This document shows, in pieces, positions 5,998 to 64,000 of a DNA stretch of 64,000 bases. A program made the translations under genes and the position numbers. Source of the stretch: Moniliella sp. 'wahieum' (Eukaryota); assembly GCA_003971905.1 (NCBI GenBank), contig RSEE01000056.1, positions 186,001 to 250,000 of the forward strand. Reading direction: 5' to 3'. Below the pieces are notes generated by a model that ran no database searches, was not told the DNA's origin, and worked only from the letters and a program-made list of their open reading frames with translations. Within the stretch, counting starts at the first letter, position 1. Each line of letters opens with the position of its first letter.

Positions 5998-8783
5998 GGG
6001 AGTGACAGAGCGAGAGGGAGGGGCCGAGGCGGGTATACAAGGCCTAGGGAGGCGCCCAGTGGGTGTTCCGTCTTGCAAGTGAGGCGGAGAAGCAAGATGC
6101 GCTTTACTTAAACGGAAGTCAATACCTGGTATGGCCTGCCCCTTCTATACTTGCCCTGGTTCCCCTGTGGCGGCCAGGGCGGGTGCGTCAGTCGGGATAC
6201 ACTCTCTTGCTACGGGCACCACCACCCGCGGGTCAGGGGATATACACTGGCGCTGCGCTTGAGATGTGATTTCGGGGACCTGGCGCTTCGCTGCAGCTGG
6301 TGCTACGCTGGGGCACTGGCGCCCTGCGACGTAGCCCAGCACGGCCCCGGCACAGCGGCCTGATGCCTGAGGCCGCAGGGACAGATAAGGCTCAAGAGTC
6401 AATTCACCCATCCGCATCACTGGTCACGTGTCTTAGATGTCTGATATCAGCACGCGAGTGCAGGCGCACCGCCAACACCGCCTCTGCCGCTCTCGGCTGC
6501 TGGGCCACTGCCTCGCAGCTCGCGCCCTCTGGGTGCTCAGCGTGCTCAGCGATCGCAACGCCTCCCGGCAGTTCGGCCAGCGCAGCCCAGAGCGCCTAGC
6601 GCTCGGCGCTCGCAGCGCCAGCACTGGCACCGGCGGCACCTGCTCTATCGCCTGTCCCTCAAGTCCGTGTCTTGGGATATCGATGATTGATTGAGTTTCG
6701 CTTTCGCTCTCCTCCCATCTACATCTCGTTGTCGGTGGTTTAGTTCGGAGGTCAGGAGGAGCTTGGCGCCAGACTGACATGCCCCGAACAATGATATCCC
6801 TCCTCCTTCCCCCCGCCGCAGAGCAAAACACAGAGAGATACTGTGCAGATGAGCTCTCGGTGGGCATCATCGCCTACAACGCAACTACCCGCAAATTAAT
6901 GCATTAGACCCCTCAGGGACTAATGACTAGTGACTAGTGACTGGTTACCGGTTACCGTTACCGCAGCCCCTCTCAGATCTCACATCTCATAGGCATCACA
7001 AAGGATACGTCTCTCTTCGCATTGGCGCCACAGAGCTGTAATTGACTCCTGCTGACCGAGAGATCTCTCCACAATCTAAGATCGAAGATCTAATCTTTAT
7101 TAGTCGTTTTGTTTGCCTGCCTGACAGCACATGTGTATCATGCACCTCGAAGCAAATGCCACTCTCTACGACTAAGTTTAGCTCCGCGAGCGATCGGAGC
7201 ATGGCTTAGAACCACCGCAGCGGAAAACCTGAGATCCGAGATGCGACGTATGACAGAGATCTCTCCCCTTCTTGCCCCCACATTCGGTCCGCGCTAGCCG
7301 CGCTCACTTTCAAATTTCACTCCTATACCGCTGTAACTTCTACTTTACATAGAAAAGCAGTCTCTGTGTTGCCACAATAGATCCAACGTCTCTCCTCTGC
7401 TTGATACACTGGCAGCCAGCGAACCTCATCGGCGTCTACTGACATCAGTGTCTTCAATCACGACGTCTCCGGCCTGATGGCAAACAGCACAACTGTGCCG
7501 GAGAGGAAACAAACGGGCGCCTTTTTTCACAGACAAGGCGGGGCGGCAAAGTGGGGAGCCACAAGTCCTCAAAAGCGCGTTTTACTGACGGCATCTAAGA
7601 TCTAACAGAAGAAAAGAGACAGGAGACAGCAACGAAAGGGGAAGACGGAGAATGATTAATGAACAGAGACAGTGCCCCCACACGGCGTATACCCTTAGAG
7701 AAGCATGTGCGGCAGAGTCTGATAGCACCCCCCTAACGTCTGTCTCTTTCTCCGCTCGCTCCACGATGGTGTACCAACTTTGGCTGTATCCGAGTTGGAG
7801 ACCCGATGGCTTGTGACATGTGACACGAGGAAGTGCTATCGGATGACATTCTTAGTGCCTTCACGGTCTTCGCTTGCTTCTATTGGAGGGTAGTGCTGGG
7901 GTTCCGTTGCACGGCCCTCGGTGGATCGCGGAAGAGTTCCGCTCGCAGGGCGCGCGCGCCCTGCTCGCTTCATTTCCCTTCTCTCTCCTGTTTCCTTCCC
8001 TTCAACTCAGATGTTGCCTGAAGACTTGTGGCTCACCTCTTTGCCTTCACGCCTGTCTGAAGGCTGTTTTGCAGCTCATCCATAGGATCGCGAGTGCTCC
8101 CAAGTCGCACTCTATCTTTCCATCTGCCCAGTCGCGCGAGCCTTCCATCAGCCGCTTCGGTTCTCCGTACCTCAGCATGTCGCCTGGGTTCCTTTCACAG
8201 CCACTGCCATGCCTCAGCCCTGGAAGTGTCTGCCCGCTCCACTGCATCTACCCGTCGCTCAGCCCCGGAGGCTTCAGACACGTTACTACCCTCCAGCCGG
8301 CGTATAGGGTCGACGAAATTCACGTTACATGGATCGAGCCCGCCACTCTGGACCATCGATCATCCTTGCTTCCCCCCTTCTTCTTGTCCTGCCCCCCTCT
8401 TCTTGTCCTTCCCCCCCCCCACCTTATTTTTGTCGCAAAGACTCCAATCGCTTTCCACATCTCCTCCTTGCTCCACCGATCCGCGGCAGCCTTGTGACCA
8501 GGTCGACGGCAGTGGGTTAGCACAACCGTGGGCGTGGATTGAAGGGCACCGTGTGCGAGTGTGAGCGTCGGTGTCGCAATGGGGGCACCGGGGGGAGTAC
8601 GGGTAGGGGGCATTTTAAGTGGGTGGAGGGACGCGTCGACGCGACTCTGTCATATGCCCGATGATTGGCGCAGCCAGCCCCCCAGCCGTCACGTGCAGGT
8701 GGGGGGGGGTGCAGTAGGGTTGCACATTTTCTTTGACCCTCCGATATGGAACTTAGAGATGTGAGGGAGGCCTGAGGTCAAGC

Positions 8784-8863
8784 GCGGTTAGTGGTTAGGG
8801 TTAGCGGTTAGCGGTTAGCGCCTGTGAGCCAGGCCACGCCCACGCCACGCCACATCACGTGAC
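8784..8863. promoter_or_regulatory. GGTTAG(C/G/T) repeat array plus E-box ATCACGTGAC upstream of RPP2
   Basis: gcggttagtggttagggttagcggttagcggttagcg at 8784-8820 and ATCACGTGAC at 8854-8863, about 300-380 bp upstream of the RPP2 ATG. Confidence 0.5.
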
Positions 8864-9162
8864 GTGAGTTTGAAGCTGTACTATTTCATTTCAAAACCAG
8901 GCCGATCCGAAAAAAAAATACGCCGCTGCTGCGGCCAACAAGGGCATGGCGCAAGTCATCCACAATGAAATGGAGTACACTGGCCTCGCACCTGTATGAA
9001 TAACCCTACAATTGCAGCCGCCGCCTTCATCTTCCGCTTGCGGGCCGTGGCCATGTTTCTGTTTCCTCTCACCACTTCTCGCGCGCCTGAGAGTCTCTTT
9101 GAGCTAAGGTCCTTTGGACGGATTATCAGCACGCACCCCCCTATTACTTCCTTTCGATCATC

Positions 9163-9613: not shown

Positions 9614-10224
9614 GCGCCTGCATTCTCTCTCTGTCCTTGGCATGAAGATGGGCAGATGGCATTTCAATGGCCTACTGGTCTAAGTTTGTCGCTGCCGCTT
9701 CTGGCCGTTTCTTTCCACGTAAGCTTCCTGCTCGGCTTGGCCTGTAGGGGCTGTAGGGGCTAGCAAAATGCCTGATCGATGTTGAATGGGATTCTGTTCA
9801 ACGGTCATCCGATTGACGTAGCACATGTTCTGCTACCCATGTAGTTCTCTGTAGTTGAACTCAGGGCAAAGTGGATAAAAGAGAAAACATCGGAGCTCTA
9901 AGGCCTGTTGATCGATGATGGACCGGACCTAGGCCAACCCCACGTCGAGCCATGGCGACGACAGGATGTACATGTGGGCGGAAGAGAAGCAATCTAGTAC
10001 AGAAGGAGAGGCAGCACGCTAATTTCGAAGGGGAGAAGATCTAGAAGATGTGTAGGGTGCAATAGGTATCAATACAGTACAGACCACAAAAGGCGCGGGC
10101 GGCCTGAGGCATGACGAAAGACTATTGGGAGAAAGTAGTAAGAAAAAAGTCCGAGTACACCATGTGGGTGATGGGAGAAGAGGGGCAGGGGCAAAAGCGG
10201 TACGGCAGAAATGAGAAGGTGAGG

Positions 10225-11408: not shown

Positions 11409-13911
11409 GGTGGGCGGGGGTGGTGGGGGCTGCGGACTAGGGGCTGAAGACGGAAGCTTGAAGGGAGGGCGGTGGCCTGTCTTGGCAGTCGCCAATTGCT
11501 AGTGGCAAGTCGCTTGTTTCTAGCCAGTCACTGGTGGCGGCGCACGCCCCGGTGGCTCTCCGAGGCTCTCCGAGGCTCTCCGCCGCTCTCCACGCTCTCC
11601 CTCTCTCGCGGAGCATCGGGATCCCGATGTGTGGGCAACAGTGTGGCAGTGTGCCCCCGCTGCGGCCCCGCTGCGCAGCAGCGGCGCAGTGCCAAGTGCG
11701 CCCCCATGCCCCTCGTCGGGGTTCTGGCATCATGCACCATGCATGTATCATGCATCGATCATGTCCATAATGTATCACGCCTCGGGGATCGATCTGAGAT
11801 GAATATGACGCGTGACGCGTGACACTGGCCGAAGGCCCAGGACCCGAGGACCGCAGTGGACAGCCTGGAGAGCTCCAATCGACCAGGCAGAGAAGAGAGG
11901 GTGAGCCTCCTCCTGTCTGTTGCCATTTTCTCCTGGGCGGCTTGATCACACTGGCATCCTCCAGCGTGACCAGTGACCGTCATTAGTGCGGTGCGTGATG
12001 ACAGCAATCCATCTATGTTTGTCGTTCGCACACTTAAAGGCTTGGGACAAAACGGTATTGCGCTTCGCTCGGCCGGCTCTTGATGAGAAGACCTGGAGTC
12101 TGGATAATTATCGAGAGTGATGCAATCGTACTGGTAGTGGCGGTCTAAACCAACCAACAACGCCTTACCGAGATGAACATCAAGCGCCATATATCAAGCC
12201 GCGAGTTGCCACCAGGGGCTAAGCTATGCGGAACAAGGAAAACAGGAGCGAGAAAACAACAAACGGAAGGGACGTTGGCCAAAGCACAGCCCACCGGTAT
12301 ATATTAGCTCAATAGCCTTTGCTCCTATAAATACTATGAGGTGACCGTGTCTCCGGTTGTCAAGCCCTTCATCAAACGTTCTACTCGTTTACACGAGAGT
12401 GCGTTGTTGAGCCTTCTACCTTTTCCTGCCTGCCTTTTCTTGTGTCATCGGGATCACCGGCCGGGGGGGGGTGCGGGCTAGCAGTTTGTATTGAGGTGGC
12501 CGATTTCCGCGGTGGGAAGATGGGGGGATTGGGGCGTAAAGGTTGAACGTTGAACGTTGATGGGATATAACGAGCTTAACGGCATCCGTTGCTTGTCACA
12601 TGTCACCTTTCCCCCACCTTTTGGCTTCAATTTCCCCCTGACTAGTGACTCCTACCCGGCTTCGTGCTATCTCGACTCCTAACCTAACTCTTTCATCCCT
12701 ATCTTCCCCTCGCCTTGATTCCCGGTGCTTCTCTCGGCCATAGACGGTAGTTTGTCGCCAGCCTGACTGCCTCTGGGCTATTGCAACACTTGCGCCCACT
12801 ACCAGGCTGAGAGATGGGTGAAATGATGATGATGCATCCTTGAGCTGATGCCGCCTGATGCACCTGATGGAGATCTCATCTCCAGTGCTGCCATACTACT
12901 ACTAGAATCAGTAAATAAGGCCTAATGACCCTCGAGGGGGATGCAATCGCATTAGTAGTAGTATAATGGCGGTGGTGAGAGCGGCAGTCAAGCTTCAATC
13001 CCGCCGAAGATACGTACAGGGACAGTAAATGCATTAGCTCCACCTAGACTGGCCGCGGAACAAGGAAAAACAGAAGTGGCTAAACAAGCTCATAGGCCTG
13101 TGAAGCAGGACTGTTGAAGAGACCATTTAGTCGCAAGCACACAGGAGCAAAATGCAACTCCGTGAGATGCATCAGCCATCAGCTGCATCAGTATCGAGTC
13201 AGCATCAGCATATTATGCCACACAAACTTCCTCATACGAACCCAACGTCGCTCTCGCGCTTGTATGGTTGCGGAAATACCGTCTCGGCATTCCAATACTC
13301 ATCGAGCATCACGGGCATTTTGGGTATAGATAGAATAGTAGCAGAAGCATTAAAACGTGAGAGAGGAGGCGATGAGGGCATGATTATGGCAGCCTCCACG
13401 TACTCAACCACATTGAAGCTCCACACACACCATTCCTCCTGAAGGGCCTGAGGCCTGGCCTGATGCACCTGATGGTGCTATATGGCAATATGAGGACGGC
13501 GAATTTGATGGAAGACGAAGATGAAGACACACAAAATCAAGGCAAAATGGGAGAGCATCGTGAACGGAAGGCACGGTGAATGTACATACAAGATCTGGGC
13601 GCACACAAAACAGCATACTACAGGAGAGTCTGTCCATGGTACAATTAGAATACGAGTGGGATATAGTAGATGCATTCCACACGAAATGTGCTACTCTATT
13701 AGTATAGTACGGCACTTCTCTGTATACCATACAACCTCAATATATAACGTTTGTCCCATTGTGAATCGCTGTAATATAGGGCCTCACGGGAGTCCGTAAT
13801 GTTTATAGGTTCTTGAGCCATATATAGATCCGTTTTTTAATCTTGAGCTAAACAATGCCTTATCCGAAGGAACGAGGTCAGGTTCCTTTTCTTCTCCCTA
13901 GATGCTGATCC

Positions 13912-14774
13912 CTACCCCGGATTCATACCACGGTTGGGATGATTCCAATGCACCGGGATCCGAAGAACGAGAGTGATAGCCGTGACGTAGGCTACCGGCA
14001 CGTTGGGTGCAACCGTGATGACATATCGTGGACGTACACCCACATCGCGCACGATCGTAGCGATACCCTGGATGGGCGTGGTGGTGGTCCGAAGAACCCA
14101 TCCGGCGTCGGTGCGATACAACCCCAAGTCTCCCCGAGGAGAAAGTAACCTTTGCTGTTCAGGGTCAATCGACATGACTTCCCGTCCCTTCATGTGGCCC
14201 ACAAAGCTGCCTTGAGTGCTAGGACGGAGGGCGAGGATCTGTTGTCCTGACAGGTCACAAATCCTGTCGGGCACGTACCCTGTTTCGTCACTTGGCCAGG
14301 TGTACTCCAAACGAAAGAGCGGGGACCTTTCCTTGCGTGTCTGCCGACAGGACGAACAACAGATATATCAGATTAGCAGAGTGGCCCAGAGCAAAAACCA
14401 AAGTGTTCCGGCCAAATCCGAAAGGATGGAAAGAAGACCAACCTCTACGACCGGATGGGAAGACCGAGTGAAACGCTTGGGCCCAACAACAAAGGAGGTC
14501 TTATGCTCATAAGAACAAAGTTCGGGGGGCTCCGAGTAGGCTGGGGGAATGTTATCGGGCGCATCTCCCAAAAGTCATCCTCCTTTGTAACCTTCTTCGT
14601 AGAAGCCGTCACTTGACTGGAAGCCAACGATCCCCGCGATTGGGATGGGACGAGGTGGCCGGTATTTGATGGTAGCACGGGTTGGGGCTCCTGAATTTGT
14701 TGCTGTTGCCAATTGCGTGGCAACTTGTTTGCTCTTTCACCATCATTGCGGTTACGGAAGAGTTTGGAAAGCAT
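13912..14774 (-). CDS. Hypothetical protein, possible LURP-one-related/Tubby-C2-like fold with a PY motif
   Basis: ATG at 14774 (MLSKLFRNR), PPAY motif. Intron 14341-14442 (GTTGGT...GCTAAT...CAG) joins in frame VVE|TRKERSPLFRLEYTW. C-terminal RYVITVAPNVPVAYVTAITLVL resembles the LURP1/Tubby-C2 terminal strand and helix. Confidence 0.55.
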
Positions 14775-17700
14775 TGTGGCCGGGGAGAGGAGTTTCGACA
14801 CAAGGAAAGGGGATTGGAGAAATGGTTGGTGGTCAGGAAGGAAACCAGAGATGAAGAGAGGTGCTTGGCAGTTGGGTGGCAAGGAACGCAGACTATATAT
14901 AGAGAGAGAAGCGCAAATAGTGCACACTGCTACCCTCGTACCAACCAAGTCTCAAAGCGCCACAGCCAGGTGTCAAGCATTTTCGTCATACGCGTGGTCA
15001 TTCATCTTTTCGTGGTGGTGTGGAGTCACAACGACTATTAGTCGCCCTGGATTTTGTGACATATACTATCCCGCAAGACAGAATAATACACTCAGGAACA
15101 GCTTAACAAAAGATGTATATTAGTCCTGTGCATTCGGAGATCCGTGTATGTACCCTCCTGCATGTGACATTGTTACCCCGCACATCTTGCTGTGCGTCGG
15201 CTATATCTATACCTCAACACTCTTTCCGTTCCAAAACATGCACTGGGCCCACAGTCTCGGAGGTACGAGACCAGGCGGTTGCAGTTTGCTTCAAGGAAAA
15301 GCCGATGACCGATTTGTCCGTGGGTATATAGGCAGTGGAATAAGACTACGATAGGGTTACTACAGAGGCTGCTACACCCAGCTGCTACCCTGCGGGGATG
15401 CTCCGTGCTTGAGAGAGGTGTAAGGCCTAAGGGGATCCGTGTGTGGCATACCGTTACTGACTTTCTGTGAGTGTGTTACGGAATTTATTAGATGCGTGCC
15501 CTTTCACATCACTATAACCGCCACCCTCAACATTGAGTTCAACGACGTGATTGCGTTTTCCGATGAGGCCCCGGTGCAGGCCAGTGAGGCCCGAGGGGTG
15601 AGAGGCGAGAGGCAGTGGCGCCTGAGGGCGCTGAGGGGTGTTGGTGTGAACACGGAGAATCATTCCCGCAGAAGCCATGATGCATGATTACCTTGCCATG
15701 ACTCATATGTAGACTCATCGAAAACTCATCGAAAACTCATCGATACAACGCGAACACCATCAGTGATCACATGCCACAGAACGCGAAAGTACAAGATGAG
15801 ACCGCGTACGGGGAGGAATAGCACTGTACTTTAATTAATTAAAGTGTTGGACGGATCTGCAGAAAGGGGTATCGCGCGAAGGATCCTTATTAGTAGTAGT
15901 TATTTTGATCCCACTCAGTATACTCGAAAGTAGAGTTCTTTGGCTTTCTGTAGCTTCTAACGACGACGATGCAGGTAAAATAAAGTACAGCGCTTGAGTC
16001 ATCTAGTCATACCAGTGTCATGCCTTGTCATATATACGGTAGTTGTTACGCGTTAGGGGGTGCTCTGCGGTTATCTCCGGACGCCGAGCCCCGCATGTCG
16101 TACTAGACATCTCAGCCGAAGACGCGTCAGTACTGAGTCCGATTAGACTAGCAAGAGAGAGCCAGTCGACACCTTATCCTTGCTGCGGATATCATCCCCA
16201 GCCCGCCATGGTCGCATACGGACTCTCATCGGTGCGGTGATGGTTTGTGCCCATCGCACTCAGCCTTGGCAGAACCCTTCCCGCCGCCCCCGACTGCGCA
16301 GCGTCAGCGCCTTTGAGAGCCCGGGCTGCGTATTGGGTTTTACCTCTCTGGAAAGTTCCTTACATTCTGTTTATACCTGTCATGAGGCCCTTGAAGCTTG
16401 GCGTTGAGGTCTGGCTCCTTTTTCTGTATATGGCTCCTTTTCTGTATATTATAAGCAGCCCTGTCTAAGGCTTCTAGCTGTGGTCCTTGTCGACCGTTGC
16501 CACATCTGCCCCTGTTCCAACCTTCCAATTCTTCTCTCGCCCTTCCACCCCCTACCACCCTTACGAATTTACGACTCACGCCGGTTCCACTGCAATCCGC
16601 GGTTACTCTCAGTAGCGCTTGCCTTTCGTTAGGACTCCTTCTGATTCCACCTATTACAGCGCGTCAAGTATTGTGGTAATGCCCCAGATAACCCACGTCA
16701 GTACCTCAGAGTTCTTGGACTGCTTCAACTGGTCTGACGACTTACCAATATACGCTGCTCCTATACATCGAAGGGTCTGGGCTGAGGCCGTGGCACGCAG
16801 GCAGCCACCGAACTAGAGAGTCTCTCTCCTCGCCTATCGGTTCGACCAGGTTCTGAGGCCGGACATGGCGCACGTGGCTCCGATTGGCCGTCGAAGGGTT
16901 TGTACCCCTAAACTACAGGGGTGAATCCCACCTCGGGACCCCCCATGACAGAAGCTTGCTGTCCAGCTCACAGAATTTTTTTGCCCTTCTTGCCTTTGCT
17001 CTCTCCCTCCGCCATTCCGAGAATGGAGTAGTACCTTTTGGGATTCACTCGCTCTCGTCCTTGCTGCTGCCATTGACGATTCGGACACGCACTTAGGTCT
17101 CTTTCATCACCTGAAGCTGTGTTAGCCATCTTCACCCCATACAGGACATTTTCCTTTTGCCCAGCTCTCTAAATGATGTTGCTCTACTATTAGCGCACAC
17201 ACGTGCCCTCATCATGGCTTTGTCCACGAAGCAGAGGTGCGACGTTTTGTCGAGGCCGACTAGAACACAGTGGAGAGTCCTGATCTCCTTTTCTTCCCGA
17301 GTGGCGTCCCTGCTACGGCAACTTCCGTGACCTCGGGTTCGGCATCATTGTGGTTCTACCCTCCTCTTCCTGTCCCGATCGTGTCCCATACTAAATGGCT
17401 CATCGAGTGTGTATATAACCGCCAATCCGCCAACCACGGACACTCACCCTTTACCTCGATGAAACCACACGTGTGCCTCTGCCCCCTCCGGCTGGCCCTA
17501 GGGACGAGCGCCACCTTCGGCCCAGCGGCCACTGTACAGCGCAGGGCTGTGCGGGACACGCCCATCCTTTTACTCCCAGCGTTCGACGCTACCGGGGCCG
17601 ACTTCGCCTGCGAACCAATAAGCCACAGCTTGCCCTCCGCCCCCCTGACTTGACGGCCGCTTGAGACAGTTCCGGGCGTGCAGAGGATGTGGTGCCTCCG

Positions 17701-17970
17701 CCTCTCCTCGGCATCGCGAGGAGGACGTACTTAGTTAGTCCACACTCTCCTCGCTTGTCGCCCCACGGAGAGGCAGTTTGCTCGCTTGCTGGAGTTGGGG
17801 GGTTTGTGGACCAAATTCATTGTTCGCTCATCACCCAGAGGAGTTCCCCTCAAGGGATGGAATGATGGGGGAACAAGGAGATTTGGAGTGACGCTGGGGT
17901 CCTCTGAGTCTACAAAAAGTCTGCATCGATTTTGAGCATCCCATGGCTTTTAATCAAGGAAGCCAAAAAA

Positions 17971-18071
17971 TGTCGTGTCCCGGGATCGAACCGGGGACCT
18001 TGAGGAATCGTAAACGATCTGCTATTGAAGCTGACTTCAATCTCACGCTCTCCCATCTGAGCTAACCCGAC
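17971..18071 (-). tRNA. tRNA-Phe (GAA) with ~26-28 nt intron at the canonical position
   Basis: Minus strand GTCGGGT TA GCTCAGATGGGAGAGC G TGAGA TTGAAG[intron]...CCTCA AGGTC CCCGG TTCGATC CCGGG ACACGAC A, followed by a T6 Pol III terminator. A and B boxes are intact. Confidence 0.88.
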
Positions 18072-20007
18072 TTCAGTGAGCAGCTGCGCATTTACAGCAC
18101 ATGACACGCCGGGATGGATTAAAGGGTCCTTCGCTATCATTGCTTGAGAATGATTGGCAAGAATAATTTGAAGTGGGTTCTAACCTGACAGGAAACGGGA
18201 AATGGAGGAAAAGGGAGCAGGTGATTGGGCTGAAGCCGGAGAGCTGAGTGGGATCAAACCTAACGTGTGATGGAGATGGAGGAAAGGATGGATTGGATAC
18301 ATTATGGACGGACTGCTGGAGGTATATGTACCTCAGAAGGAAGAGGGGCACCGTCGAGAGGTGGACACAGAATTTTCCAATGATAGGAATCACGTCCTAG
18401 TGTCCCATACGGGCCTAGTGGTCCAAGGGGCCCCTAGCAGGGCGCATTAACAGTATGGGTTGTTGATACATAGTGTGTGGTGCATTCTTTTATGACATTG
18501 ACCCGTGGGCCATGGGGGGGCTCACCGTGGTGGTCCCCGAGGTGGGACCCCTTCCCCTGGTGTGGTTAGCGGTAAATTCAAACGTCCTTGGACGGCCAAT
18601 CGGTGCCACACGCACGGTATATGTCCGACTTCAGATCATATCTTCGCAGTCGAACCAAGAGCGAGTGAAGGATAGGGAGAAACGCTCTATAGTTTGAGTT
18701 TGTGTCTGCGTGCATAGGACTCACCTTATATATAAACCCTCAAGGACTGAGCAGGGTGTGTATAGGACGTCAAGCTCCCCCCCTGTTGAATGTGTCCATG
18801 CGATACTCCAGCATAAAGCTTTTGCTTCCTGACGTTCCGCACTGGCGGCCGTATCAGGCGGAAGAAACAGACAGAATCCTGAGGCCTGACTGAAGAACAA
18901 AGCGCTGCCTGTGAGGGTAGTAGTAATAACTTTTTTGGCAGCACAGTGTAACCGACGTAGAATCAGGGCGGGGTGAAAAGTCGAGAGCGAAGGAGGAGAA
19001 AACGTGTGTAAAGGATAATACCTGGCGAAAACTTGGAATGGAAGAGGTTAGTCGGCATGCAACAGGATGATCGCTGAGGACTGCGGCAGCAAGGCTTAGA
19101 CGGGCTGAATATATATACATTGAAGATGAGATCAAGACAGGTATAAAACAGGTTTTGGAGCTTTACAGAGAGGTAAATAAAAGGCGGATGAAACCAGCCA
19201 TATACTTTCAAGGGTGCTCACACGCTGTTGTGTGGCCACTAGGCGCATCGACTGAAAGGTTCTGACTGACCTGAGGGCGCAAAGGGTATAACAAGCACTT
19301 TTATTGAGAGGGGCTCGTGCGACCATATCTATACGGCCAACCGCGGAGAATATCGCAGCAGGGATCAGTATTTGCCCACTGACTTTCTCTCGCTAGTCTC
19401 AACCCTCTGTTTGGATGAGATGTACACGACATGCAGGGCTCTGAGTTCTGAGTTCTAGTACTCTTCGGTAACAGAGATCGCGTATAGAGGCAAGAGTGGA
19501 AGCCCTGATGTGGAAAAGTTGTTATATCATGACCACACAACAAAACACCGCTTTCGATCACACACACCGCACTCAGTACACAGTCTGAGTACTCTCTTCA
19601 GTGTACTCACCCCATATCCCGCCCGTTCCTGTGTTGTATAGTAAAACATGTACGCAATCCCGCAGATCTCTTCCCGATTGCCCGCAAGGCCATATGAAGC
19701 CGGCGGGATGAGCTCTCTCTCTTTTTCTACCACTCTTATATATTTTCACTGGAGGACCACACATCTCACCGAAGAATCCATATGGTCTTTCGTCTCTCAT
19801 TGATCTCTTTCTACTTACTGAAGTTGGGTTCCAGCATGGGCTGAACACTGCTGGGCCCAGTTCGGTATAATGCATCTCTTTCTTCCTCAAGATGGCATGG
19901 ACCTTTTGAGGCCCTTGAGGGGTAACCGGTTAATGCATACAATCAGGCCCTTAGGTGTTCTATACCCAATGCGCCACCGGGCGACAACTGAAATGTGAAA
20001 CCATAGC

Positions 20008-20089
20008 GAAGCTTGAAGCTTGAAGCTTGAAGCTTGAGCGCCTTGAGCGCTTGAAGCTTGAAGCTTGAAGCTTGATGCATGATGCATGC
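20008..20089. repeat. Heptamer tandem array (GAAGCTT)n interrupted by GAGCGC(C)TT units and ending in (GATGCAT)n
   Basis: Read directly: gaagcttgaagcttgaagcttgaagcttgagcgccttgagcgcttgaagcttgaagcttgaagcttgatgcatgatgcatgc. Confidence 0.95.
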
Positions 20090-21538
20090 TGCGCCTTTTA
20101 ATGAAATTTGCTTGATAGGTGATCCGGTGATGCATGCGATGCATTCCCAGCACAAGCAACTGTGTTTTTGCGGCAGGAAACACCTTGCGGCATGTCTCTG
20201 GACGAAGAATCAATGACGTCGGTAAGAAGGGGAGGCAGCACACGGCCTGTGTACAGCATGGAGGGAATGATCGCCGGATACCAAGCCACCGGCCACGCAG
20301 CATAGCGCTTGCCATCCCCCGGCGCAGCAGAGGCAGCAGCCGTGCAGTCTACTGGGCAGCCGCCACCGGCACCAGCTGTGCCAGCCCATGCCGCTTTGCT
20401 CGGCAGGGCTGGAAAGGGCTGCGCGTCACTGTCACAGTCACTGCATCACAGCGCCATGGGTGGCGCGTCTGCTGCGCTGCTCGTCGCGGCACGTGTCAGG
20501 CATGACGCATGTGACGCACCTCGTTGCTGCCTCTTGGTGCCTGCCCCTCTGCCCCTTCTTTGTATGTTCTCAGATCTCAACGCCTCCAGTGGAGTAGTGC
20601 TCGTGATCAGCGCGATTGATCAGCAGCTACTGGCTCAGCTGCTGCTGCTGACCCAGTGCTGAACGCGCTGAACGCTGAACTGACCGATGATTCTGATCGG
20701 CAATTGAAACTCGCTCGCCGCTTTGAAGATGAAAGCACCACCACAGCAGTCGTCGGCACGGACAAGGCCATGGGTGAAACAGGCACGAAGGCAATTGTCA
20801 AGGACATATCCGGTGTTGGGCGCCAGCTAGTGGCCGGGGACCAGGGACCAGTGGCCAATCGCGCATTCGCAACCGCGGCGGCGTTCTCTCAGAATCTGGC
20901 TGTGGGTGTGGTGACGGTGAGGGGGTGACACCGGTGACGGAAAAACAGAGCGAACAGTCGGACATGGAAGCGAGACGTGCGGCATGTGGGCGCGTCAGGC
21001 GTCAGGGGCGTCAGGAAGCGCGTTTCCCATGTACGCAACGCCGTTCTATTCTTCAGATACTCCGCACGGACGAGGCGATGGCCGATGGCAGAGGGCGGAT
21101 GGTCGAGGGAGGGAGCAATGTGTTTGGGCAACTGCTGCCGCGTGTCTGTGGACGACAGGGTGTCTGTCTGGCACAGACACCCCAGTGCTGGCTGAAATCA
21201 TGCATCAGCGATCATGGCGTCGGACGGCTGGGCGCGGGCTGGCGACGCGCGTGGCGCGGCATGGGCGTGGGACGAGTGTCCACACGCCGGCTGCTGCTGC
21301 TGCTGCTGCCTGCTGTGTCTGTCTGCCGAGGGGCTTGCTGCTGGCCTGCTCTGGCTGCAGCTATGGGCGCCCATGCCCATCCCCCATCCATTCATCCATC
21401 CACCTCCTCCCCACCCCATTCCCTCCCCACCCTTCAGCTGGCCCTGAGCACCACCACCACCACCATCCGCAACCCCTCCTCATCCTCCTTACCATCCCCT
21501 CATCTCCCCTGCTCCCACCCTCCTTCTCCTGCGCCAAG

Positions 21539-26713: not shown

Positions 26714-26826
26714 GGGCAGGAAGGGCAGAGGCGGTGGGGGCTGCCCACAAGAAGCAGGCTGGCCTGGGGTGTATTTAATCGCCGGGCCAGCCGGGCCGGA
26801 TGCGGGGAGACACAGGCGCCGTGCCA

Positions 26827-26853
26827 GGAAGATTCCACCGAAGCAGCTGGAAG
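26827..26853. promoter_or_regulatory. Heat-shock-element-like site in the HSP60/HSP10 divergent promoter
   Basis: gGAAgaTTCc (nGAAnnTTCn) at 26827-26836, plus further GAA units at 26840 and 26850. Confidence 0.5.
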
Positions 26854-50300: not shown

Positions 50301-50380
50301 CTCCCAGCAGCACCATCTTGCTTCTCCCTCCCCTCAGCACATCTTCTGCTAGCTCCTTTCTCACCCACCTCGCCTCCACC

Positions 50381-52370
<1,990 letters not shown>

Positions 52371-53529
52371 ACGATGGATTCATCTCGATCGAACAGCCCC
52401 GCGTTGTGGCTTGCTTGTTCGACGTTAGTTGCTTCTTCCCTCATGCTCACGACTGTAATTCAGCACCACTTGTCATTTTCATGGGCCGTCGCGCCTCCCA
52501 TCTCGTTCACAGTATATGCATAGCATTCACAGGTCATTGTTACTTTTGTGAGTTGGTGGCATTTTTGCGCATTCAACCGCGGAGGATGGAAGCGTATAAG
52601 GCCATACACTCGTATCATATACCAACTTTGCAAGTAATTTGACCAGCACATCTGCAGCATGGACAAGGGCAAGACATTCCGGGAACCGGATAGCGTCAGT
52701 CCAGCCGTGAGAATACTGGAACGGGACTTCTACAATGCGGTTGGGCAACACCCTAAAGCCAGTGGCTGCAAAAAGACGGTCATCAGTGTTTTATCTCTGT
52801 AGTTAAGTGTACTATAACTCAACTACTAATACACGGCAAAAACTTTTGTAGCTTCTGTGAGTGTGGCTAACTTCCATTGTGACAAGCGACAAGTGAATAG
52901 TAGAGAGTTGTATTGTCTCGATCGAGTCTGCGTCCTCATATGCGTCGGCTGGCGAGGACAGTGACAATTTGGCTAACTGTGTCCGAAGGTTATAAGGCCA
53001 CATCATATGTTTGTGAGGACGAATGGGGTCGCAGTTAGTAGTCAAGCCTCTTCTATAGTCTCAACCCCGCATACGGCCAGCTTTTTCCATCGCGAAGCTT
53101 GTTGACTCTCTGCACTCGCCCTTTGCTTAGTACTTGGCGGCATCTTGCATGCCACTCATTTTGCTTGTTTGATGCTCCGATCGGACCTGGCTTGTTATTT
53201 GCCCAAGGAGTGCCCTGACCATTCTTCAACCACCTGTACGCGCTGTGCTCGCGCTCAGACGGAACACTCAGAATACCCACTGATGAAGCTTGAATAGGAA
53301 GCCAACTCGTGTTGGGTCCATGCAGCATACCTTTCGCAACTGAAAACTACGGTGCCCGTTCCGGTATCAGTCAATTCTAGGAAACTATCCATTCTGGTGA
53401 CGAACGAGAACAGCCGTGACAGCCAGTACACGACCAGAAAGGGGGGTGGCAGGGGGAAAGGGGACACGAAACGAGAGTACAGGTATCTTCCGCTGTGGCA
53501 GGGACGAAGCAAATGGGACAGAGAGGAGG

Positions 53530-55757
<2,228 letters not shown>

Positions 55758-55943: not shown

Positions 55944-56189
55944 ACCAGAAAAACTTTGGCTGAGCTGAGCGCTGATTCCGCTGCGGTCATTCCGCGCCGG
56001 GCCGGTTTGTGATGGGTGTGTGTCAGAGGCTTTCAACTTTTAAGCTTCAAAATCTGCAACCTGTCACCCGTGGCTGTCACGTGTGACGCTCGTTAAAGCA
56101 ATTGTGAAAGTTACAAAAATAACCCCGCCTGCTCGCAGCAGGCCCACCCGCAAGTGCATCAACCAGCAGCACCCCAGGACAACAACTCC

Positions 56190-58008: not shown

Positions 58009-58541
58009 TTACTGAGCCAAAATTTGGCGAACAAATTGCTCGTAGTTGATGTTGCCGTCGCTGCGCGTTGCGGGCAAACGGGGGGCGGGAAAGGGGGGGA
58101 GAGGGGTCAGCGGGGGTTGTGGCATGAAGTTTGAAGGCGGAGCAGAACAAGGAAGGGAACGTACGCAGACACAGGCACACCCTTCAGCAACTCATCCACC
58201 TCTTGATCGGTCAACTTTTCTCCCAACGACGTGAGCACATACCGCAGCTCCCCAGCGCCGATGAAGCCATTGCCCTCCTTGTCAAAGACTTGGAAGCCGC
58301 GGATGAATTCATCGGGCGTGCCGGCCCGGCTTGAAGCCATTGGGCGCTGCAAGATGGAAATAAAGGTGGGGTAGTCAATCTCGCCCGGCGGAGGCACTGT
58401 CGCAACCAGCTCGGCTACTTCAGCTTGGGTCGGGTTCTGGCCGAGCGCACGCAGCAGGTCGCCCAGCACCGAGGAGGGAATCTGGCCAGTGCCGCGCTTG
58501 TCGAACAGGGCAAAGGCCTCTTTGAACTCGGCGTCGGACAT
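58009..58541 (-). CDS. MLC1: Myosin essential light chain (Mlc1/Cdc4-type EF-hand protein)
   Basis: [65 protein letters not shown]; intron 58061-58164; last exon [20 protein letters not shown]. Confidence 0.93.
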
Positions 58542-59334
58542 GGGGTGAGAAAAGGAGGAGAAGAGGAGAAAGGGGAGAGAGAAGGGATGTGTGGTGGGGG
58601 TGGTGGCAGTGCGCCTACAGCAGGCGGATGGGACGGTGACACTTACCTTGCCCTTGCCCCCCGCAGGTTGCTGGTGTTGTTCATATCGCCACATTGCCCC
58701 CACACTCGCGCTGTGCTCGGGCTGGTGTTGGTTAGGACACGCGCCGCGCCGGCCGTGCCTCAACCCACCATTCCGCCCGCCCACGTGAACGGGAATTGGA
58801 AATGTGCACGTGACGCGGCTTCGATCGGTAGGGTTCTGGGAAGCGGGTTGGCTCTGCAACCAGAACAGAAATTTGGCCAAACCCCACAGCACCTCCCCCC
58901 CCCTTGCCCCCCACCCAAAAAAGCTGTATGAAGAGAGGCGCCCCAATATACCATGGATGGACGACACAGACGAGGCATCATGTCTGAGGCCCCAGAGACA
59001 GTTGGTATCCAGGAATGCACCGATATATTATGCACAACCAAGAAGAGCGTCCGCCCCCCCCCCTCCCCCCTCTCTCTTCCTGCCACCCGAGCAGATCAAA
59101 ATGCACGCCAAGCAAGCACTGGTGCGGCAGATTCGCTCTAACTGTTCCATGTCTCATCGAAACCCATTTGAAGCCGTGATGTGTTTGGCCAGTGAGGGTT
59201 GATTCTTTGTTTGTTAGGATCCAATATCCATTCCAAGGGGGTGATAGCGGTATCCTCGAATCTATAGTAGAGAGCAGGAAATGTAGAGCAAAGAAGAGAG
59301 AGCGGGGGGGCCGGATTATGTTAGTGTGCCTTCT

Positions 59335-60533
59335 TCAAAGGTGCTCGCGGTAAGCGAGTCGGACTATATGATGAAAACCGTTCTTCCTGTCCGCGCTCAA
59401 GGAGAGAGATCGTGTGAGGGACTGTGCGGTGGCTGACACAGAGCTGGCAGCCTGGGAGAGGGAACGGCGGACGGAAACAGATCGGCCCTTGCCAAGGTCA
59501 AAGGGGGATCGTACCGAATGCGACGCGGGGGCAGAGAAGGTGGACGTGGCCCACCAAGCGGCCACGGTAGTGCTCAATCGGAATAGGTACAATCCCAACG
59601 TCCAAGCGCCCATGGCCACCGCACAGGAGCGTGCAACCATGGATAAAAAGGAAGGCCTAGAACGACGGAGGGCAAGGGTGACGCCTTCGAGGCTAATGCC
59701 AAAGAAGATTCCAGGGGTACCCATTCGATTCCACAGAGGGCGGGTGTACTGAGTGACGCTGTACTGGCTGGTTATGATTGGGGAAGAGGTGGCCATATAT
59801 ACCGTAGGCACGAGGGTAATGTAGTATTGGAAAACTTGAAAGGGGGCCACCGCTATCGAACGGGCCCCGTCTAGGGGCACAGGCCGCCCGGGTATCGCAG
59901 GTCCAAAGGCGAGATGATGAAAGATATGTGTCAAGTTCATTTCTGCGGCTTATGTTAATCTCGTGCGCCAAAAAGAGAAGAAGGGTCGAGACACGTACGA
60001 CTGTGCTTGGCATGGGCTGCCGGATGTTCTGGATCAAAGTAGCCATGACCTGCGGTGGTGAGTTGGAGCGAGCCACCGATTTGTGCCAGAGAGAATTCTC
60101 CCGAAAGCCGGCAGGCTTCGTCATGCCTCCTTTGGATCTTGTCCACTGGCGGGGTAAGCCAAGGGTGGCAGCAAAGGAGGGGGGTGCGCTGGAGGAGCGG
60201 GGTGAGATGTACCAAGTCGTCCTTGGCATCGTGCCATTCGAGACTGAGCAGTTCGCAGCGCATGGCTACCGTCATGTCGAGGGATAAGTCCACGGTGCTG
60301 GGGAGAGTTCGGTCGAGTACAAAGTCATGGATCGTTTCGCTAGCAGTAGCCAAGCGGCAGACATCGGCCAGGCACAGCAGCGTCACGGCGCACACGAGGA
60401 GTACCGACCATAGCCCGCCGGCGCGGGTGGTGTGGGAGTAGAGAGTGTGGGTCTTGGGGAACGCGTCGAAGGAGCGGAGCGGCCGGGACGAATCAAGGCG
60501 GGCCAGCAACGAACGAGACGCCTCGCTGCCCAT
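59335..60533 (-). CDS. ERV41: ER-Golgi vesicle protein Erv41/ERGIC2 family
   Basis: LRSFDAFPK, GGLWSVLL TM, LDMTVAMRC, ACRLSG, GHGY, NLTHIFHHLAFGP, PLDG, FQYYITLVPTVY, TSQYSVT, PGIFF, second TM. Lacks the Cys-rich insert of Erv46. One short intron near 59943-59997. Confidence 0.85.
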
Positions 60534-60801
60534 CGAAGCGTGGACCGACCAGGTGGTACGGGCGAGAGAGGCAGAGGGACCTCGCTGCCATCGTTGCTGC
60601 TCCACTCGGGCGGGAATCGGGATGAGGCCCAGGGGAGGCAAGACTGTTCCTGTACTGGATGGGCCCCGTGGGCTGAAAACAGTGGCGCTATGCTGGGGAC
60701 AGTGCCTCGCGCGAGCCGAACGGGTGTGGTGCTAGCGAGCCGCTGGCCTTGGGGGGCTTGCCAGGGCCTGCCAGGGCTTGCGGGGGCTTGCTTCAGAGCT
60801 C

Positions 60802-60831
60802 CAAGCTTCAAGCTTCAAGCTTCAAGCTTCA
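60802..60831. repeat. Heptamer tandem array (CAAGCTT)4 in the ERV41/SWC5 divergent promoter
   Basis: caagcttcaagcttcaagcttcaagcttca; reverse complement of the unit at 20008. Confidence 0.95.
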
Positions 60832-60970: not shown

Positions 60971-61749
60971 ATGCCATCTTCCTCCGACAGCGACTCGTCT
61001 GACGAGGAGTTTGTCGTCTCCAAACCGACGCAAGGAACTTGTACGCCTTTCTTCTTTCCGTCGAAATCAAAGCTGACACGTTACAGCCTCGGACGACTCT
61101 GACACCGACGCGCCCACCAAGCGCCAGCCTGACCCTACTGGACTAGAGGAGGGGGAGGCAGCTACCCTCGCACAAGACGCCGGGGACCTTCACTCCTATG
61201 GACGGGGAAAGCGACGAGCGGTGACTGCTGACCCGGCACCTGTACAACAGGCAGCTCCGCCCTCCGGGTCCAGTCAGGCCGATGCCATCTGGGCCGAGAT
61301 GAAGAGTGCACCTGCTGAACTCAAGGCGGCTCCGGCCATGGTCAAGGTCATGCGTACCTACCAGTTTGCGGGGGAGGAGGTGCATGAGGAAGGGACCTGC
61401 CCGCTGACCATCCGGACGCCGTAGCGCAGTCCCGGACAATTGACAAGACCCCTTCTGCCCCCACCTCCTTCGCGTCCACGGCCAAGCCCGGAAGGAAACG
61501 CAAAGCGGGCCTCGCGAGCTTGGCGGCGGCTGCTACGGCGAAAGCGCCCAAGCTCAACACGGTGGAGAAGAGCAAGTTGGATTGGGAAGCTTACAAGGCC
61601 CAAGGCATGAGTCAGGAGGAATGGAACAGATTGAGGCCCAAACACGCGGCACGCGCGGAAGGGGCAAGATGGAAGGGTATTTGGATCGGTCGGATTTCTT
61701 GGATCGGGTACATGCTCGGCAGGAGGAGGAGCTTGCTCGCAAAAGATGA
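60971..61749 (+). CDS. SWC5: SWR1-complex subunit Swc5 (BCNT/CFDP1 domain)
   Basis: Acidic start MPSSSDSDSSDEEF, short intron (~61041-61087), ADAIWAEMK, VKVMRTYQFAGEEV, KLNTVEKSKLDWEAYK, GYLDRSDFLDRV (BCNT C-terminal signature). Confidence 0.9.
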
Positions 61750-62025
61750 TCTCGCAAGAACGATTCGTCTGTCACTCGGGCTATGAGGACAGGACCGGGA
61801 AGTGAGAGTGAACTACATATTGGTGCGTGAGTGTTAGAGGGCAGAATCGCGTACACGTGCCTGATGCTGAGACAGAAACGTAGTCGACTTGCGACCCCCA
61901 TGCGAGAGGAGAGATGAACACTGAAACGGTCTCGGGCCTCCATACTGAAGCCCGGAGGCCGGGGGGGGGGGGGGGGTGAGGTGCATGTGCTACTGGGGCT
62001 ATCTCTGGCATTCAACAGGAAGACA

Positions 62026-63582
62026 TTATGCATTGGCCAAACACCCCTCACCCTCTGAGAAGAGGTGAAGGGTACTTGCATTGATCATGAGCAGGTAGGG
62101 GTAAAGTCGGTATCTTTGTGCAGTGCGAATCTGGTGCAGAGGAGCACTTCGTTCTCCTCCACCATGGGATGTGAAAGAGGAATGGGCGTAGGATCCCATA
62201 TCGCCAGGTATGGCCGCGTTGTCTCGAGGCCGAGAGGGCAGAGCGGATGGATCCAGATGGCACGGGAACAGCGTCAAACGAAGGTGCATGTGAAAACGTA
62301 GGAGAAAAGAGGGCCAAGATCGAGCCTGTACTACGAGACGTACAGCGGGCCAGGACCGCGCCGCCGGGGGGACCCATTGGGATGGTCGCGAGCACCTGCA
62401 ACACGTGGGAGGGGCGGGGCGCGTCTTGCCCCCTACCTGTCCTGTGAATGCGGGCGTCTTCTCCACGTCAAAGATAGACGGGCGGGGTTTGGATGGAATG
62501 CGCGGCGGAGCCGGCGCATATTGCTCCTCAGCCCAAAAGATATGCTGGGACCGAGCATGCTGCAGGGCGGCCATGGCCTTCTCCACTAACCCCCAGAGAC
62601 AGGGCGCGCTTTGCGAGCGCGGGCACGTGCCTGAATGATGCGCTGCACAGTGGTCATGCCCTGCGGCGGTTCAGCCGAATCGGCCGCAGAGGGCGCAATG
62701 CGCACCGGAGCGGGCGAGGGGACTGCTTGGCTGTTGACGAGTGGCACTGGGTGCTCCCGTGGGCGAGCATCCAGACGAGAGAAAGGGGTCGTCGGTTTGG
62801 CACCATCGCTACGGCGGGGACGGAAATGCTTGTCCACATCAGGTTGTTCCAGGTGGTGCACCAGGGCAGTAAGGTTGACTCCGCGCGGACGAGGTGGAGC
62901 AACGCGAGAGGGGGAAGGTGACCGTTGCCGCTTGCGCGTAGATGGCGTGGGAGAGGCCGAATGTGCGGCCTGTGGGCGGATTAGGGTCTGGAATGGGGGG
63001 TGGGGCAGGCGCGTGTTTGGGACAGAGTTCGGGGTGACAATGTGGTTAGATTGAAAACGGGACTGGGGCGTAGAGCGTGAGGAACGTGGGGGGTGGGGCA
63101 CAAGCGGTGCGGTGCGCATCATTGTCGTCAGCTCTGACAGGGACAGTTTCGCTTGCGGCCGGTCGGGGCGGGCGGAGGAGGAGGAGGACGCGCATTTTGC
63201 CGCGCAGGTGTGGTGAGCTTTGGGTTTGGATTGGCTGCGAGCGAGGAACGGCGCCAGATGAGTTTCTGTCGTTCGCGTTCGGCGCCACGGGAGAAGAGGA
63301 GCGGCTCCTGATCAAATGCGAAAGAGGGGGCCTGCTTGCTGGGTGCCTCGGGGCGGGAGGGGGGCAGGACACGTGGACTGCGTGGGCTGCGGCCCAGACG
63401 ACGGCGGGGCGAGGGCTGGCCCTGCCATGGGTGGGCGGGAGAGGGTTGTTCTCGTCGGCGTCGGCGTCGGTGCCGGAGCAAGCGGGGCGCGGGCTCGGAA
63501 GCGGACGCTTGCGCTTCGTTGTGGGCGTCGCTGGCAGCGGAGGTTGCGGGCAGGGCGGGGACGTGCTGCGGGTGGGCACCAT
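62026..63582 (-). CDS. Hypothetical Pro/Ser/Arg-rich protein
   Basis: Chain of long overlapping minus-strand ORFs from the ATG at 63582 (MVPTRSTSPP..., KRKRP NLS-like). The 3' end and introns are uncertain. Confidence 0.45.
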
Positions 63583-64000
63583 GGAATAGGGAGGCTGTGG
63601 CCGTTGGACGTTGGTCGCCAATGTTAATGAGGGAGAGTGACTAGGGAGGAGTGAGGCTGAGGCGCGGAGGCCTTAGCCGAGGCACTGCATCATCCTTTGG
63701 ATGATCGATGATCGATCGCCAGTGGCGGAGAAGCGGCGTCGAGGAGCAATGGTTAAATTTTAAACGGGTAAATGCAATGGCAGACAATGGCCGCCACGCG
63801 TCGCGTGTGTCATCGATGTCATCGATCATCGATCATCGATCATCGGTGAGCATATCGGCCATCTTGATCGATCTGTGCATGTGATCATTAAAAGCGGCGC
63901 GTGATGTGCGGCGCGTGACGTGACGCGACAGGTGGCTTCTTCTCGGTTACCGCTTTCGCAAATTTATGAACGCCGCCAGGTTGCCATTTGCATTCTCAAA

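Follow-up and report, generated by a model that had tools for sequence, protein, structure and literature searches.

Quasi-palindromic heptanucleotide micro-repeats with a T-N-A frame in intergenic DNA of a basidiomycete

The CNG triplet repeats (CAG, CTG, CGG and CCG) have a unit of GC plus one base N, and their single strand can pair with itself, leaving one N.N mismatch in each unit; such self-pairing may stabilise slipped intermediates. Yeast promoters reportedly carry unstable tandem repeats, which Vinces et al. are said to have described in 2009 as mostly AT-rich and free of any symmetry rule. Among mobile elements, Tc1/mariner transposons leave footprints of the form TA-CWG-TA, and the PIF/Harbinger and IS5 groups have T-N-A targets. 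Direct repeats of the heptamer TAACTGA, in two to few copies, are found in intergenic DNA of Beggiatoaceae, Cyanobacteria and Bacteroidetes, and the available part of the report on them places them just upstream of start codons, proposes an action at the mRNA level and gives their origin as unknown (PMC4679880). The mini-hairpin DNA GCGNAGC, according to the accessible portion of its description, is with 7 nt the smallest stable DNA hairpin and has a 2-bp stem and a 3-nt loop (PMC13037366). In Fusarium mitochondria, palindromic microsatellite-like repeats are associated with insertions and deletions and are possibly mobile, as stated in the excerpt available of that work (PMC7218506). Here we describe a family of short 7-bp direct repeats with variable palindromic cores in a 64,000-nucleotide stretch of DNA from Moniliella sp. 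'wahieum' (contig RSEE01000056.1, positions 186,001 to 250,000). This 64-kb stretch is called the window below, and every statistic on the repeat pattern refers to it alone.

The element is the 10-mer T-N-A-X-Y-Y'-X'-T-N-A, a perfect palindrome save for the two N, which are directly repeated. Its repeat unit can be written as a palindromic hexamer A-XY-Y'X'-T plus an odd base N or, equivalently, as T-N-A plus a 4-bp palindrome. An earlier note on the same DNA had reported A-NN-N'N'-T hexamers with a G or C spacer, and we found these in all 20 of the 20 ranges it cited. It had also described the units as framed by TGA or TCA. This frame stood for the TGA and TCA units but is not the full rule: the constant part is T-N-A, as TAA/TTA-N4-TAA/TTA had a palindromic core in 8 of 14 matches, at eight separate places. 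The TAG/CTA frame was palindromic in 2/13 matches, the GAA/TTC frame in 2/47, and the other trinucleotides in 0–15 %. A rule of 'stop codon plus palindrome' (TGA, TAA, TAG) was ruled out in favour of T-N-A because of this low TAG/CTA count and because the strand of the elements was inconsistent with the genes. The sole case in the window that breaks the T-N-A and hexamer rule with TAG plus a palindrome (CCGG) is (TAGCCGG)2.9 at 48237-48256.

As background we used 100 order-4 Markov simulations of the window. TGA-pal4-TGA (pal4, palindromic tetramer) was observed 31 times against an expectation of 1.28±1.21, and TCA-pal4-TCA 19 times against 1.04±1.05. An excess of palindromic cores over a Markov background was thus present within the window. 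None of the remaining trinucleotides was near this excess, except that TAA and TTA were high in proportion to their very small expectations. For the complete T-N-A-pal4-T-N-A rule, there were 58 matches compared with ~2.5 in the simulations. When overlapping matches were merged, 34 of 66 loci with TGA or TCA repeated across four bases had a palindromic N4 (~4 expected); palindromic tetramers make up only 6.0 % of window positions. The effect was confined to a spacer of four bases. Fifty of the 93 TGA-N4-TGA matches on both strands were palindromic, and the spacers N2 (8/32), N3 (13/59), N5 (1/32) and N6 (0/48) were all at chance level.

The period was equally restricted. Units of the type 'palindrome plus one base' occurred in 44/130 runs of period 7, compared with 10.8 % for random units, and were at or under the random level at periods 3–6 and 8–11. 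Fourteen of the 24 period-7 runs with at least eight matched bases had a unit of palindromic hexamer plus one base (random units, ~11 %), and perfect runs of at least two copies numbered 35 at period 7, 5 at period 8 and 51 at period 6. Hexamers with A...T ends (n=245) were flanked by G on both sides in 56 cases and by C on both sides in 37, and no flank pattern was seen in the window for hexamers with T...A, C...G or G...C ends. These data agree with the view that ordinary slippage is insufficient to explain a shared frame and symmetry, as quasi-palindromic units were enriched at period 7 only. The longest period-7 array outside the rule is a non-palindromic (GGTTAGC)n of ~5 copies at 8784-8820, which loosely resembles the telomere-type TTAGGG repeat.

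We conclude that the palindrome-cored heptamer pattern is real and that a chance origin is very unlikely. That the statistics rest on a single 64-kb window would speak for chance, a composition bias, or an assembly or polishing artefact. The size of the excess over the simulations, given the low frequency of palindromic tetramers, makes such an explanation hardly credible. Moreover, the elements sit in unique sequence, and similar composite arrays were present in independent metagenome assemblies of other fungi (contigs L184, L145 and L139, described below).

The elements share properties with each of the systems mentioned at the outset and differ from each of them. Like ordinary microsatellites and minisatellites, they form head-to-tail copies; their units are not unconstrained, however, as the 14/24 runs and 34/66 loci given above share one design. 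Like the CNG repeats, they have a unit consisting of a short palindrome plus one odd base (here hexamer plus N) and a self-complementary strand with a regular mismatch. Unlike the CNG repeats, they have a period of 7 rather than 3, a free palindrome sequence with an outer A..T pair and mostly 1.4–4 copies, the best-folding units are not enriched, and other odd periods in the window are without effect. With the yeast promoter repeats they have in common that they are short, intergenic, promoter-side and outside coding sequence, but they follow a strict grammar of T-N-A plus palindrome at 58 % G+C. Target-site duplications and footprints of transposons resemble them in being symmetric direct duplications of fixed length, with a constant trinucleotide, an ambiguous middle base, duplicated flanks and symmetry about the centre. 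In contrast to such footprints, no transposon ends, terminal repeats or common flanks were found at the loci within the 64 kb, and the cores match no single element's termini.

The bacterial TAACTGA repeats, as far as the available part of their description goes, are likewise abundant intergenic heptamers with T-N-A triplets (TAA, TGA). They have one fixed, non-palindromic sequence, whereas the fungal family has at least 14 cores under one symmetry rule, in either orientation (PMC4679880), and consists of many units at variable distance from genes. The unit Y'X'-TNA-XY has the same 2+3+2 layout as GCGNAGC; that mini-hairpin type, in the portion accessible, needs a G-N-A loop, a sheared G.A pair and G-C stems, whereas the window has T-N-A loops and any stem (PMC13037366). 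The Fusarium repeats are also fungal, non-coding and defined by palindromy, but the excerpt presents them as longer, mitochondrial and without a 7-bp T-N-A frame, whereas the window is nuclear and its elements lie among intron-containing genes (PMC7218506). We found no description of the rule in the literature searched, which did not include most subscription journals, in line with the earlier note, whose author knew of none. The sequence rule is apparently new and belongs with hairpin-prone intergenic tandem repeats. A heptamer class would be overlooked because repeat surveys usually end at 6-base units; the available part of one survey of short tandem repeats contains no mention of heptamer, heptanucleotide or 7 bp (PMC12699852).

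The odd base was identical on both sides of the core, as GG in 31 cases, CC in 19, AA in 5 and TT in 3. The inverted combinations were nearly absent compared with these 50 direct G and C cases: TGA-pal4-TCA (G-C) was found 0 times and TCA-pal4-TGA (C-G) twice. With A or T as odd base, four perfect palindromes also occurred. The identity of N on both sides and the period-7 extension described below indicate direct duplication rather than inverted half-sites. Fourteen of the 16 palindromic tetramers were used as cores and none was dominant, TGCA (8), CGCG (5) and AGCT (5) leading. A core that is free and yet self-complementary points to strand pairing or templating and not to one base-reading protein. 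Both of these inferences seem solid. The minimal element is TNA-core-TNA, with 50 matches, compared with 19 for core-TNA-core.

The 58 matches formed 45 chains, and 37 of the matches were isolated 10-mers. The tandem arrangement that had been described therefore applies to the longer arrays but not to these. The elements are short direct 7-bp repeats of ~1.4 to 6 copies, about a dozen having 2.3–6 copies; TRF and exact-run scans found head-to-tail period-7 arrays of up to ~9 copies. Around the 10-mer, the fraction of period-7 matches was ~0.5–0.62 at offsets 1–2 and fell to a baseline of 0.2–0.3 from offset 10, so that the similarity reaches about one further unit on each side. Extensions to the left (17/37) and to the right (12/37) were independent, both being present in 5 cases with 5.5 expected. 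Typically, then, an element has two to three copies and frayed ends.

Units with different cores were joined in frame at three places: AAGCTT-G-ATGCAT at 20068 and ACCGGT-G-ACGCGT at 37852, both reported before and verified here, and ACGCGT-C-AGTACT at 16122. By our own rough estimate from the hexamer density, ~0.5 such joins would be expected. At these three joins, and in contigs L184 and L145, the arrays switch the core yet keep the frame, and the variant neighbour is again palindromic. Two further runs, at 20658-20700 and 49219-49247, have TGA every ~7 to 10 bases, and the cores in between are partly palindromic but differ from one another (GCTGAACGCGCTGAACGCTGAACTGACCGATGATTCTGATCGG); the runs resemble decayed arrays that have kept a recognisable TGA frame. 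At 63700-63845, two ATCGAT-cored arrays in opposite orientation lie 104 bp apart around a segment with TTAAATTTTAAA, a symmetric arrangement akin to a small inverted-repeat cassette.

Because the unit Y'X'-T-N-A-XY is symmetric about its central base, it would fit a dimeric enzyme that cuts with an odd-length stagger. Such an enzyme (a transposase, a domesticated transposase or a symmetric dimeric nuclease) would cut with a 7-bp stagger centred on T-N-A; fill-in and rejoining would then duplicate 7 bp in the style of a target-site duplication, and slippage would later extend some of the scars. The strict period of 7, the strict trinucleotide T-N-A and the lineage restriction of the rule are consistent with this. 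In the IS5 / PIF-Harbinger group, T-N-A forms the core of the target or duplication, and promoter regions are preferred by many DNA transposons. However, no eukaryotic superfamily is known to us that duplicates 7 bp around a central T-N-A. The 64 kb examined showed neither transposon ends nor inverted terminal repeats nor common flanks at or between the elements, and no transposase domain was found by Pfam among 333 open reading frames (ORFs) of at least 95 aa. An all-against-all BLAST comparison of the loci revealed no common sequence in their flanks, and a scan for inverted repeats (the 25 longest of 111 pairs, with 16339/19177 inspected) revealed no element bounded by terminal inverted repeats around them; the elements therefore arose in place.

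Other properties are also difficult to reconcile with a staggered cut. A sequence preference of the enzyme would give specific flanking bases and not arbitrary complementary ones. Footprints of hairpin opening (P-nucleotides) predict N3, N5 and NNCA-core spacers, none of which was enriched. The independent extension to left and right fits eroded two-copy repeats but not a fixed 12-mer scar. We consider scars of a 7-bp-stagger enzyme improbable. A related model of P-nucleotide addition with a 5-bp duplication (TNAXY-Y'X'-TNAXY) was ruled out: all nine 12-nt runs lay in its two predicted phases, but the extensions were independent and its other spacers were not enriched.

To locate the elements relative to genes, we used a map of Pfam matches on the 333 stop-to-stop ORFs, since a self-trained codon-usage gene finder was too weak for this purpose. 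The map covers genes with a Pfam domain, and genes without one are missing from it. Pfam-supported gene spans take up 27.8 % of the window, and none of the 45 chains lay within one (binomial p=4×10−7). The claim that the repeats are intergenic thus holds within this map. Their density is about one element per kb of non-genic DNA, at distances of 26 bp to several kb from the nearest Pfam-supported exon. Within 1.2 kb of a Pfam-supported gene, 16 chains were on its 5' side and 4 on its 3' side; 25 of the 45 were farther away than 1.2 kb, many of them in the 12–20 kb stretch of lower G+C content. The suggestion that the repeats form in open promoter DNA is backed by the ratio of 16 to 4 but not by these 25 distant chains. 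A promoter location is a tendency and not a demonstrated rule, because genes without a Pfam domain are missing from the map. With respect to the sense strand of the nearest gene, the orientation (TGA or TCA) was mixed.

The avoidance of gene bodies and the preference for the 5' side are also what a cis-regulatory role would lead one to expect. One or more factors would bind T-N-A half-sites 7 bp apart in promoters, and slippage would multiply these sites, giving homotypic clusters. A need for shape or flexibility would account for the palindromic core, or there would be several dimeric factors, each with its own hexamer (ACGCGT, ATGCAT, AAGCTT). Fungal bZIP proteins have TGA and TTA as the cores of their half-sites. 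Elements were found upstream of the genes for enolase, aconitase, Hsp60/Hsp10, a thiamine-pyrophosphate enzyme, a DEAD-box helicase and others, and arrays with differing cores cluster within 100–500 bp (6918-6989, 20008-20092, 49313-49800 and 63700-63845). A single protein, however, cannot demand complementarity and at the same time accept 14 of 16 cores. The inverted half-sites expected of a dimeric bZIP-type form are those found 0 and 2 times compared with 50 direct ones, and the mixed orientation towards the downstream gene and the 25 distant chains do not favour regulation either. In the next outward unit, the T-N-A positions were kept no better than the core positions, and no specific bases are conserved, the fixed features being T, A and complementarity alone. 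The factor reading TGA/TCA half-sites at 7-bp spacing that the earlier note had offered is therefore weakened by the free core, the identical N and the extension to TAA/TTA; the position and clustering of the elements fit it. Taken together, we regard a cis-regulatory origin as unlikely.

We tentatively prefer, at somewhat less than even chances, the explanation that the elements are lineage-specific quasi-palindromic heptanucleotide micro-repeats, made by 7-bp duplication and slippage under self-pairing. A 7-bp tandem duplication would create an element, and slippage would lengthen or shorten it. The palindromy would be set by nucleic-acid pairing in an intermediate and not by a base-reading protein. 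In one version, the looped-out 7 nt would form the smallest hairpin, a 2-bp stem with a T-N-A triloop (Y'X'-TNA-XY); in another, adjacent units would pair across an N.N mismatch. Selection would then purge the elements from coding DNA, because three TGA units place a stop codon in each reading frame. The T and A that flank the odd base would probably reflect a lineage-specific enzyme or repair preference. Instability of the copy number of the arrays is proposed.

In predicted folds, both the real arrays and the full set of 256 synthetic units had T-N-A in a triloop, with neighbouring units paired and N.N mismatches. As a single strand, the array at 20008-20092 was predicted to form one long hairpin of −25.5 kcal/mol (z=−6.5; 0/200 shuffles equal). 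The mutational alternative of the earlier note, a template-switch or hairpin process, is the one towards which the variable palindromic core, the identical flanking N and the mixed orientation lean.

Several results weigh against duplication under self-pairing. Only the array at 20008-20092 stands out in folding; for most of the other real arrays, the folds were no more stable than those of shuffled sequences (z=−0.3 to −3.2). Predicted hairpin stability misses the class that is used: four-unit strands of A..T hexamers gave ~−6.7 to −8.3 kcal/mol, and the C..G and G..C hexamers fold better (−9.2 to −13.2 kcal/mol) but are not enriched. The G-N-A triloops, the most stable ones known, are unused, as the count for GAA/TTC shows. 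Nor does the calculated hairpin energy account for T and A being needed beside the odd base. The isolated 10-mers, 37 of 58 matches, are too short to fold, and are assumed to be decayed or contracted arrays. A general pairing-assisted slippage would show at periods 5 and 9, which were at or under the random level. It would also show in the viral and metagenome controls, where generality fails.

Viral contigs with five TGA in 7-base steps provided at least 124 loci, among which the matches listed included 62 true tandem arrays. A palindromic core was present in 2 of these 62, so the rule is not general to heptamer arrays. A metagenome scan with (TGAAGCT)3.4 as seed gave at least 120 stretches, the majority of them on unrelated contigs, and in their flanks 23 of 283 (8 %) other period-7 runs were quasi-palindromic among the matches listed, which is at chance. 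No other period or control set showed the effect, and a lineage-specific T-N-A-preferring factor is therefore needed if duplication under self-pairing is to hold. The seed itself is common in metagenome contigs of 28–70 % G+C (loci L125-L244), often within mixed GCTTGNN arrays (GCTTGCA, GCTTGCG, GCTTGAG) and in some cases on contigs of 0.7–1.8 Mb. These GCTTGNN-type arrays are probably a separate phenomenon.

Composite arrays similar to those of the window were nevertheless present in a few fungal-looking metagenome contigs. Contig L184 has TGAAGCT three times, TGAAATT and TCAAGCT, plus TCAGATCTCAG 110 bp away; L145 has AAGCTT-G-AATATT and L139 has TGACGCGTGAC. L184 codes for HIRA and for an alcohol dehydrogenase; the HIRA shares 85 % identity with the Lactarius protein, so the contig appears to be Russulaceae-like. 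In the record series Ga03075xx and WNFR/WNGR, 6 of 30 non-seed loci were palindromic among the matches listed (p=0.01), compared with 14 of 136 in the rest; the subset was hand-picked by record-name series and the result is suggestive only. These data hint, from a small sample, that the grammar is wider than one basidiomycete lineage. Composite arrays in both a Ustilaginomycotina-like genome and a Russulaceae-like contig leave room for a phylum-wide process. It would be an enzyme-driven mutational signature of basidiomycetes: at T-N-A sites in accessible intergenic DNA, a symmetric nuclease or a repair activity would repeatedly make 7-bp duplications with self-templated complementary arms. Promoters could then evolve from these products, or the products could themselves act as a structural promoter signal in cruciform or slipped-DNA form. 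We think this wider version rather doubtful.

The window is nuclear eukaryotic DNA with a G+C content of ~58 %, and its genes are split by introns (enolase, for example, into at least five ORF pieces). The nearest proteins to the helicase exon were from Jaminaea rosea (45 %) and Tilletiopsis (42 %); the Hsp60 exon was 78 % identical to proteins of Tilletia horrida and Malassezia and 91 % identical to one further assembly. Because these two exons match Jaminaea, Tilletiopsis, Tilletia and Malassezia, the host is an intron-rich basidiomycete near or inside Ustilaginomycotina. A remark that heptamer-rich intergenic DNA is seen in smut fungi thus fits as to taxon, but we found no paper on such DNA there. 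The elements and the Pfam-supported genes are listed in Table 1.

Table 1. Heptamer elements and Pfam-supported genes in the window
Feature	Position	Strand	Basis
(TGACTAG)n, core CTAG, ~3.6 copies, one degenerate unit	6918-6942		
(TTACCGG)n, abuts the preceding (TGACTAG)n; odd base T/A rather than G/C	6943-6963		
TCA-GATC-TCA, then degenerate unit	6971-6989		
TCA-AATT-TCA, single	7308-7319		
TAA-GATC-TAA, single	7593-7605		
TGA-TTAA-TGA, single	7651-7662		
TGA-CATG-TGA, two full units	7812-7825		
TGA-TCGA-TGA, single	9909-9918		
(TGACGCG)2.6	11806-11823		
(TGAACGT)2.7	12542-12560		
TCA-CATG-TCA (12596) and TGA-CTAG-TGA (12639), singles, 40 bp apart	12594-12650		
TAA-GGCC-TAA (12916) and TCA-AGCT-TCA (12988)	12916-12997		
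GGCC-TGA-GGCC-TG, core GGCC	13445-13457		
TAA-GGCC-TAA, single	15421-15432		
TGA-TGCA-TGA, single	15676-15688		
TTA-CGCG-TTA, single	16046-16055		
TGA-GGCC-TGA, single	18878-18889		
Largest composite: AAGCTT x4, AGCGCC/AGCGCT, AAGCTT x3, ATGCAT x2, in frame	20008-20092		
TCA-GATC-TCA, single	20568-20579		
TCA-TGCA-TCA, single	21198-21207		
TAA-CGCG-TAA, single, 34 bp beyond last Pfam-supported PAK kinase exon	24293-24302		
TCA-TGCA-TCA, between PAK kinase and Hsp60 3' ends	24961-24972		
TCA-TGCA-TCA, Hsp60/Hsp10 divergent intergenic region	27016-27025		
(TGACCGG)2, ~370 bp upstream of first Pfam-supported enolase exon	29589-29603		
TCA-TCGA-TCA, single	30880-30889		
TGA-CGCG-TGA and TGA-CCGG-TGA-CGCGT (in-frame two-core join), upstream of aconitase	37832-37859		
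(TGAACGT) array, one 3-base deletion, upstream of Mph1/FANCM-like helicase	42881-42905		
TAA-GCGC-TAA (43129) and TGA-ATAT-TGA (43160)	43129-43171		
TCA-CGCG-TCA within TCA run of 7-base steps, upstream of mitochondrial carrier	46568-46577		
TCA-CCGG-TCA and (TCATGCA)2.6	48179-48216		
TGA-TGCA-TGA, upstream of thiamine-pyrophosphate enzyme gene	49313-49325		
TGACGCA and (TGATGCA)2	49584-49603		
(TGAGATC)2.9	49662-49681		
TCA-GGCC-TCA	49788-49800		
TGA-AGCT-TGA, 3' side of DEAD-box helicase	53284-53293		
TGA-GCGC-TGA, upstream of DEAD-box helicase	55964-55975		
(TCAAGCT)n, ~5.9 copies, between divergent ERGIC/Erv-like and BCNT genes	60790-60831		
(TGATCGA)2.4	63700-63716		
TTA-AATT-TTA, between the two ATCGAT arrays	63753-63762		
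(TCATCGA)3.9, in opposite orientation to the 63700 array and 104 bp from it	63819-63845		
Formin-like GBD	94-525	-	Pfam
MFS transporter	4313-5678	-	Pfam
PAK kinase	22154-24259	+	Pfam
Hsp60	24998-26896	-	Pfam
Hsp10	26779-27489	+	Pfam
Enolase	27928-29815	-	Pfam
Aconitase	35037-37107	-	Pfam
Mph1/FANCM-like helicase	40607-42045	-	Pfam
Mitochondrial carrier	45331-46271	-	Pfam
Thiamine-pyrophosphate enzyme	50033-52023	+	Pfam
DEAD-box helicase	53533-55348	-	Pfam
EF-hand protein	58110-59027	-	Pfam
ERGIC/Erv-like protein	59338-60731	-	Pfam
BCNT protein	61388-61783	+	Pfam

Some other features of the window were recorded. The Hsp60 and Hsp10 genes (24998-27489) stand head to head with an intergenic gap of a few hundred bp. 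The ~8 kb at 12000-20000 have a lower G+C content (0.49–0.55), no Pfam match in ORFs of at least 95 aa, nine elements and two nested pairs of inverted repeats (16339/19177 and 16874/18586); this stretch could be a gene desert, contain lineage-specific genes or be an old mobile element. The longest inverted repeat of the window, 7536-7571/8019-8054 (36 nt, 83 % complementary, arms 447 nt apart), shares its intergenic region with five heptamer elements. A C-rich run at 59050-59072 and a run of 16 G at 61955-61976 form an inverted pair of 22 nt, 2.9 kb apart.

A sequence rule that leaves the bases free but makes them pair with each other is the signature of a nucleic-acid-templated process. With about one element per kb of non-genic DNA, it suggests that a specific repair, nuclease or slippage pathway shapes fungal intergenic regions. 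The rule is simple enough to be counted in any genome. Unstable elements would readily supply promoter variation and genetic markers; conserved ones would represent a new type of structural promoter signal.

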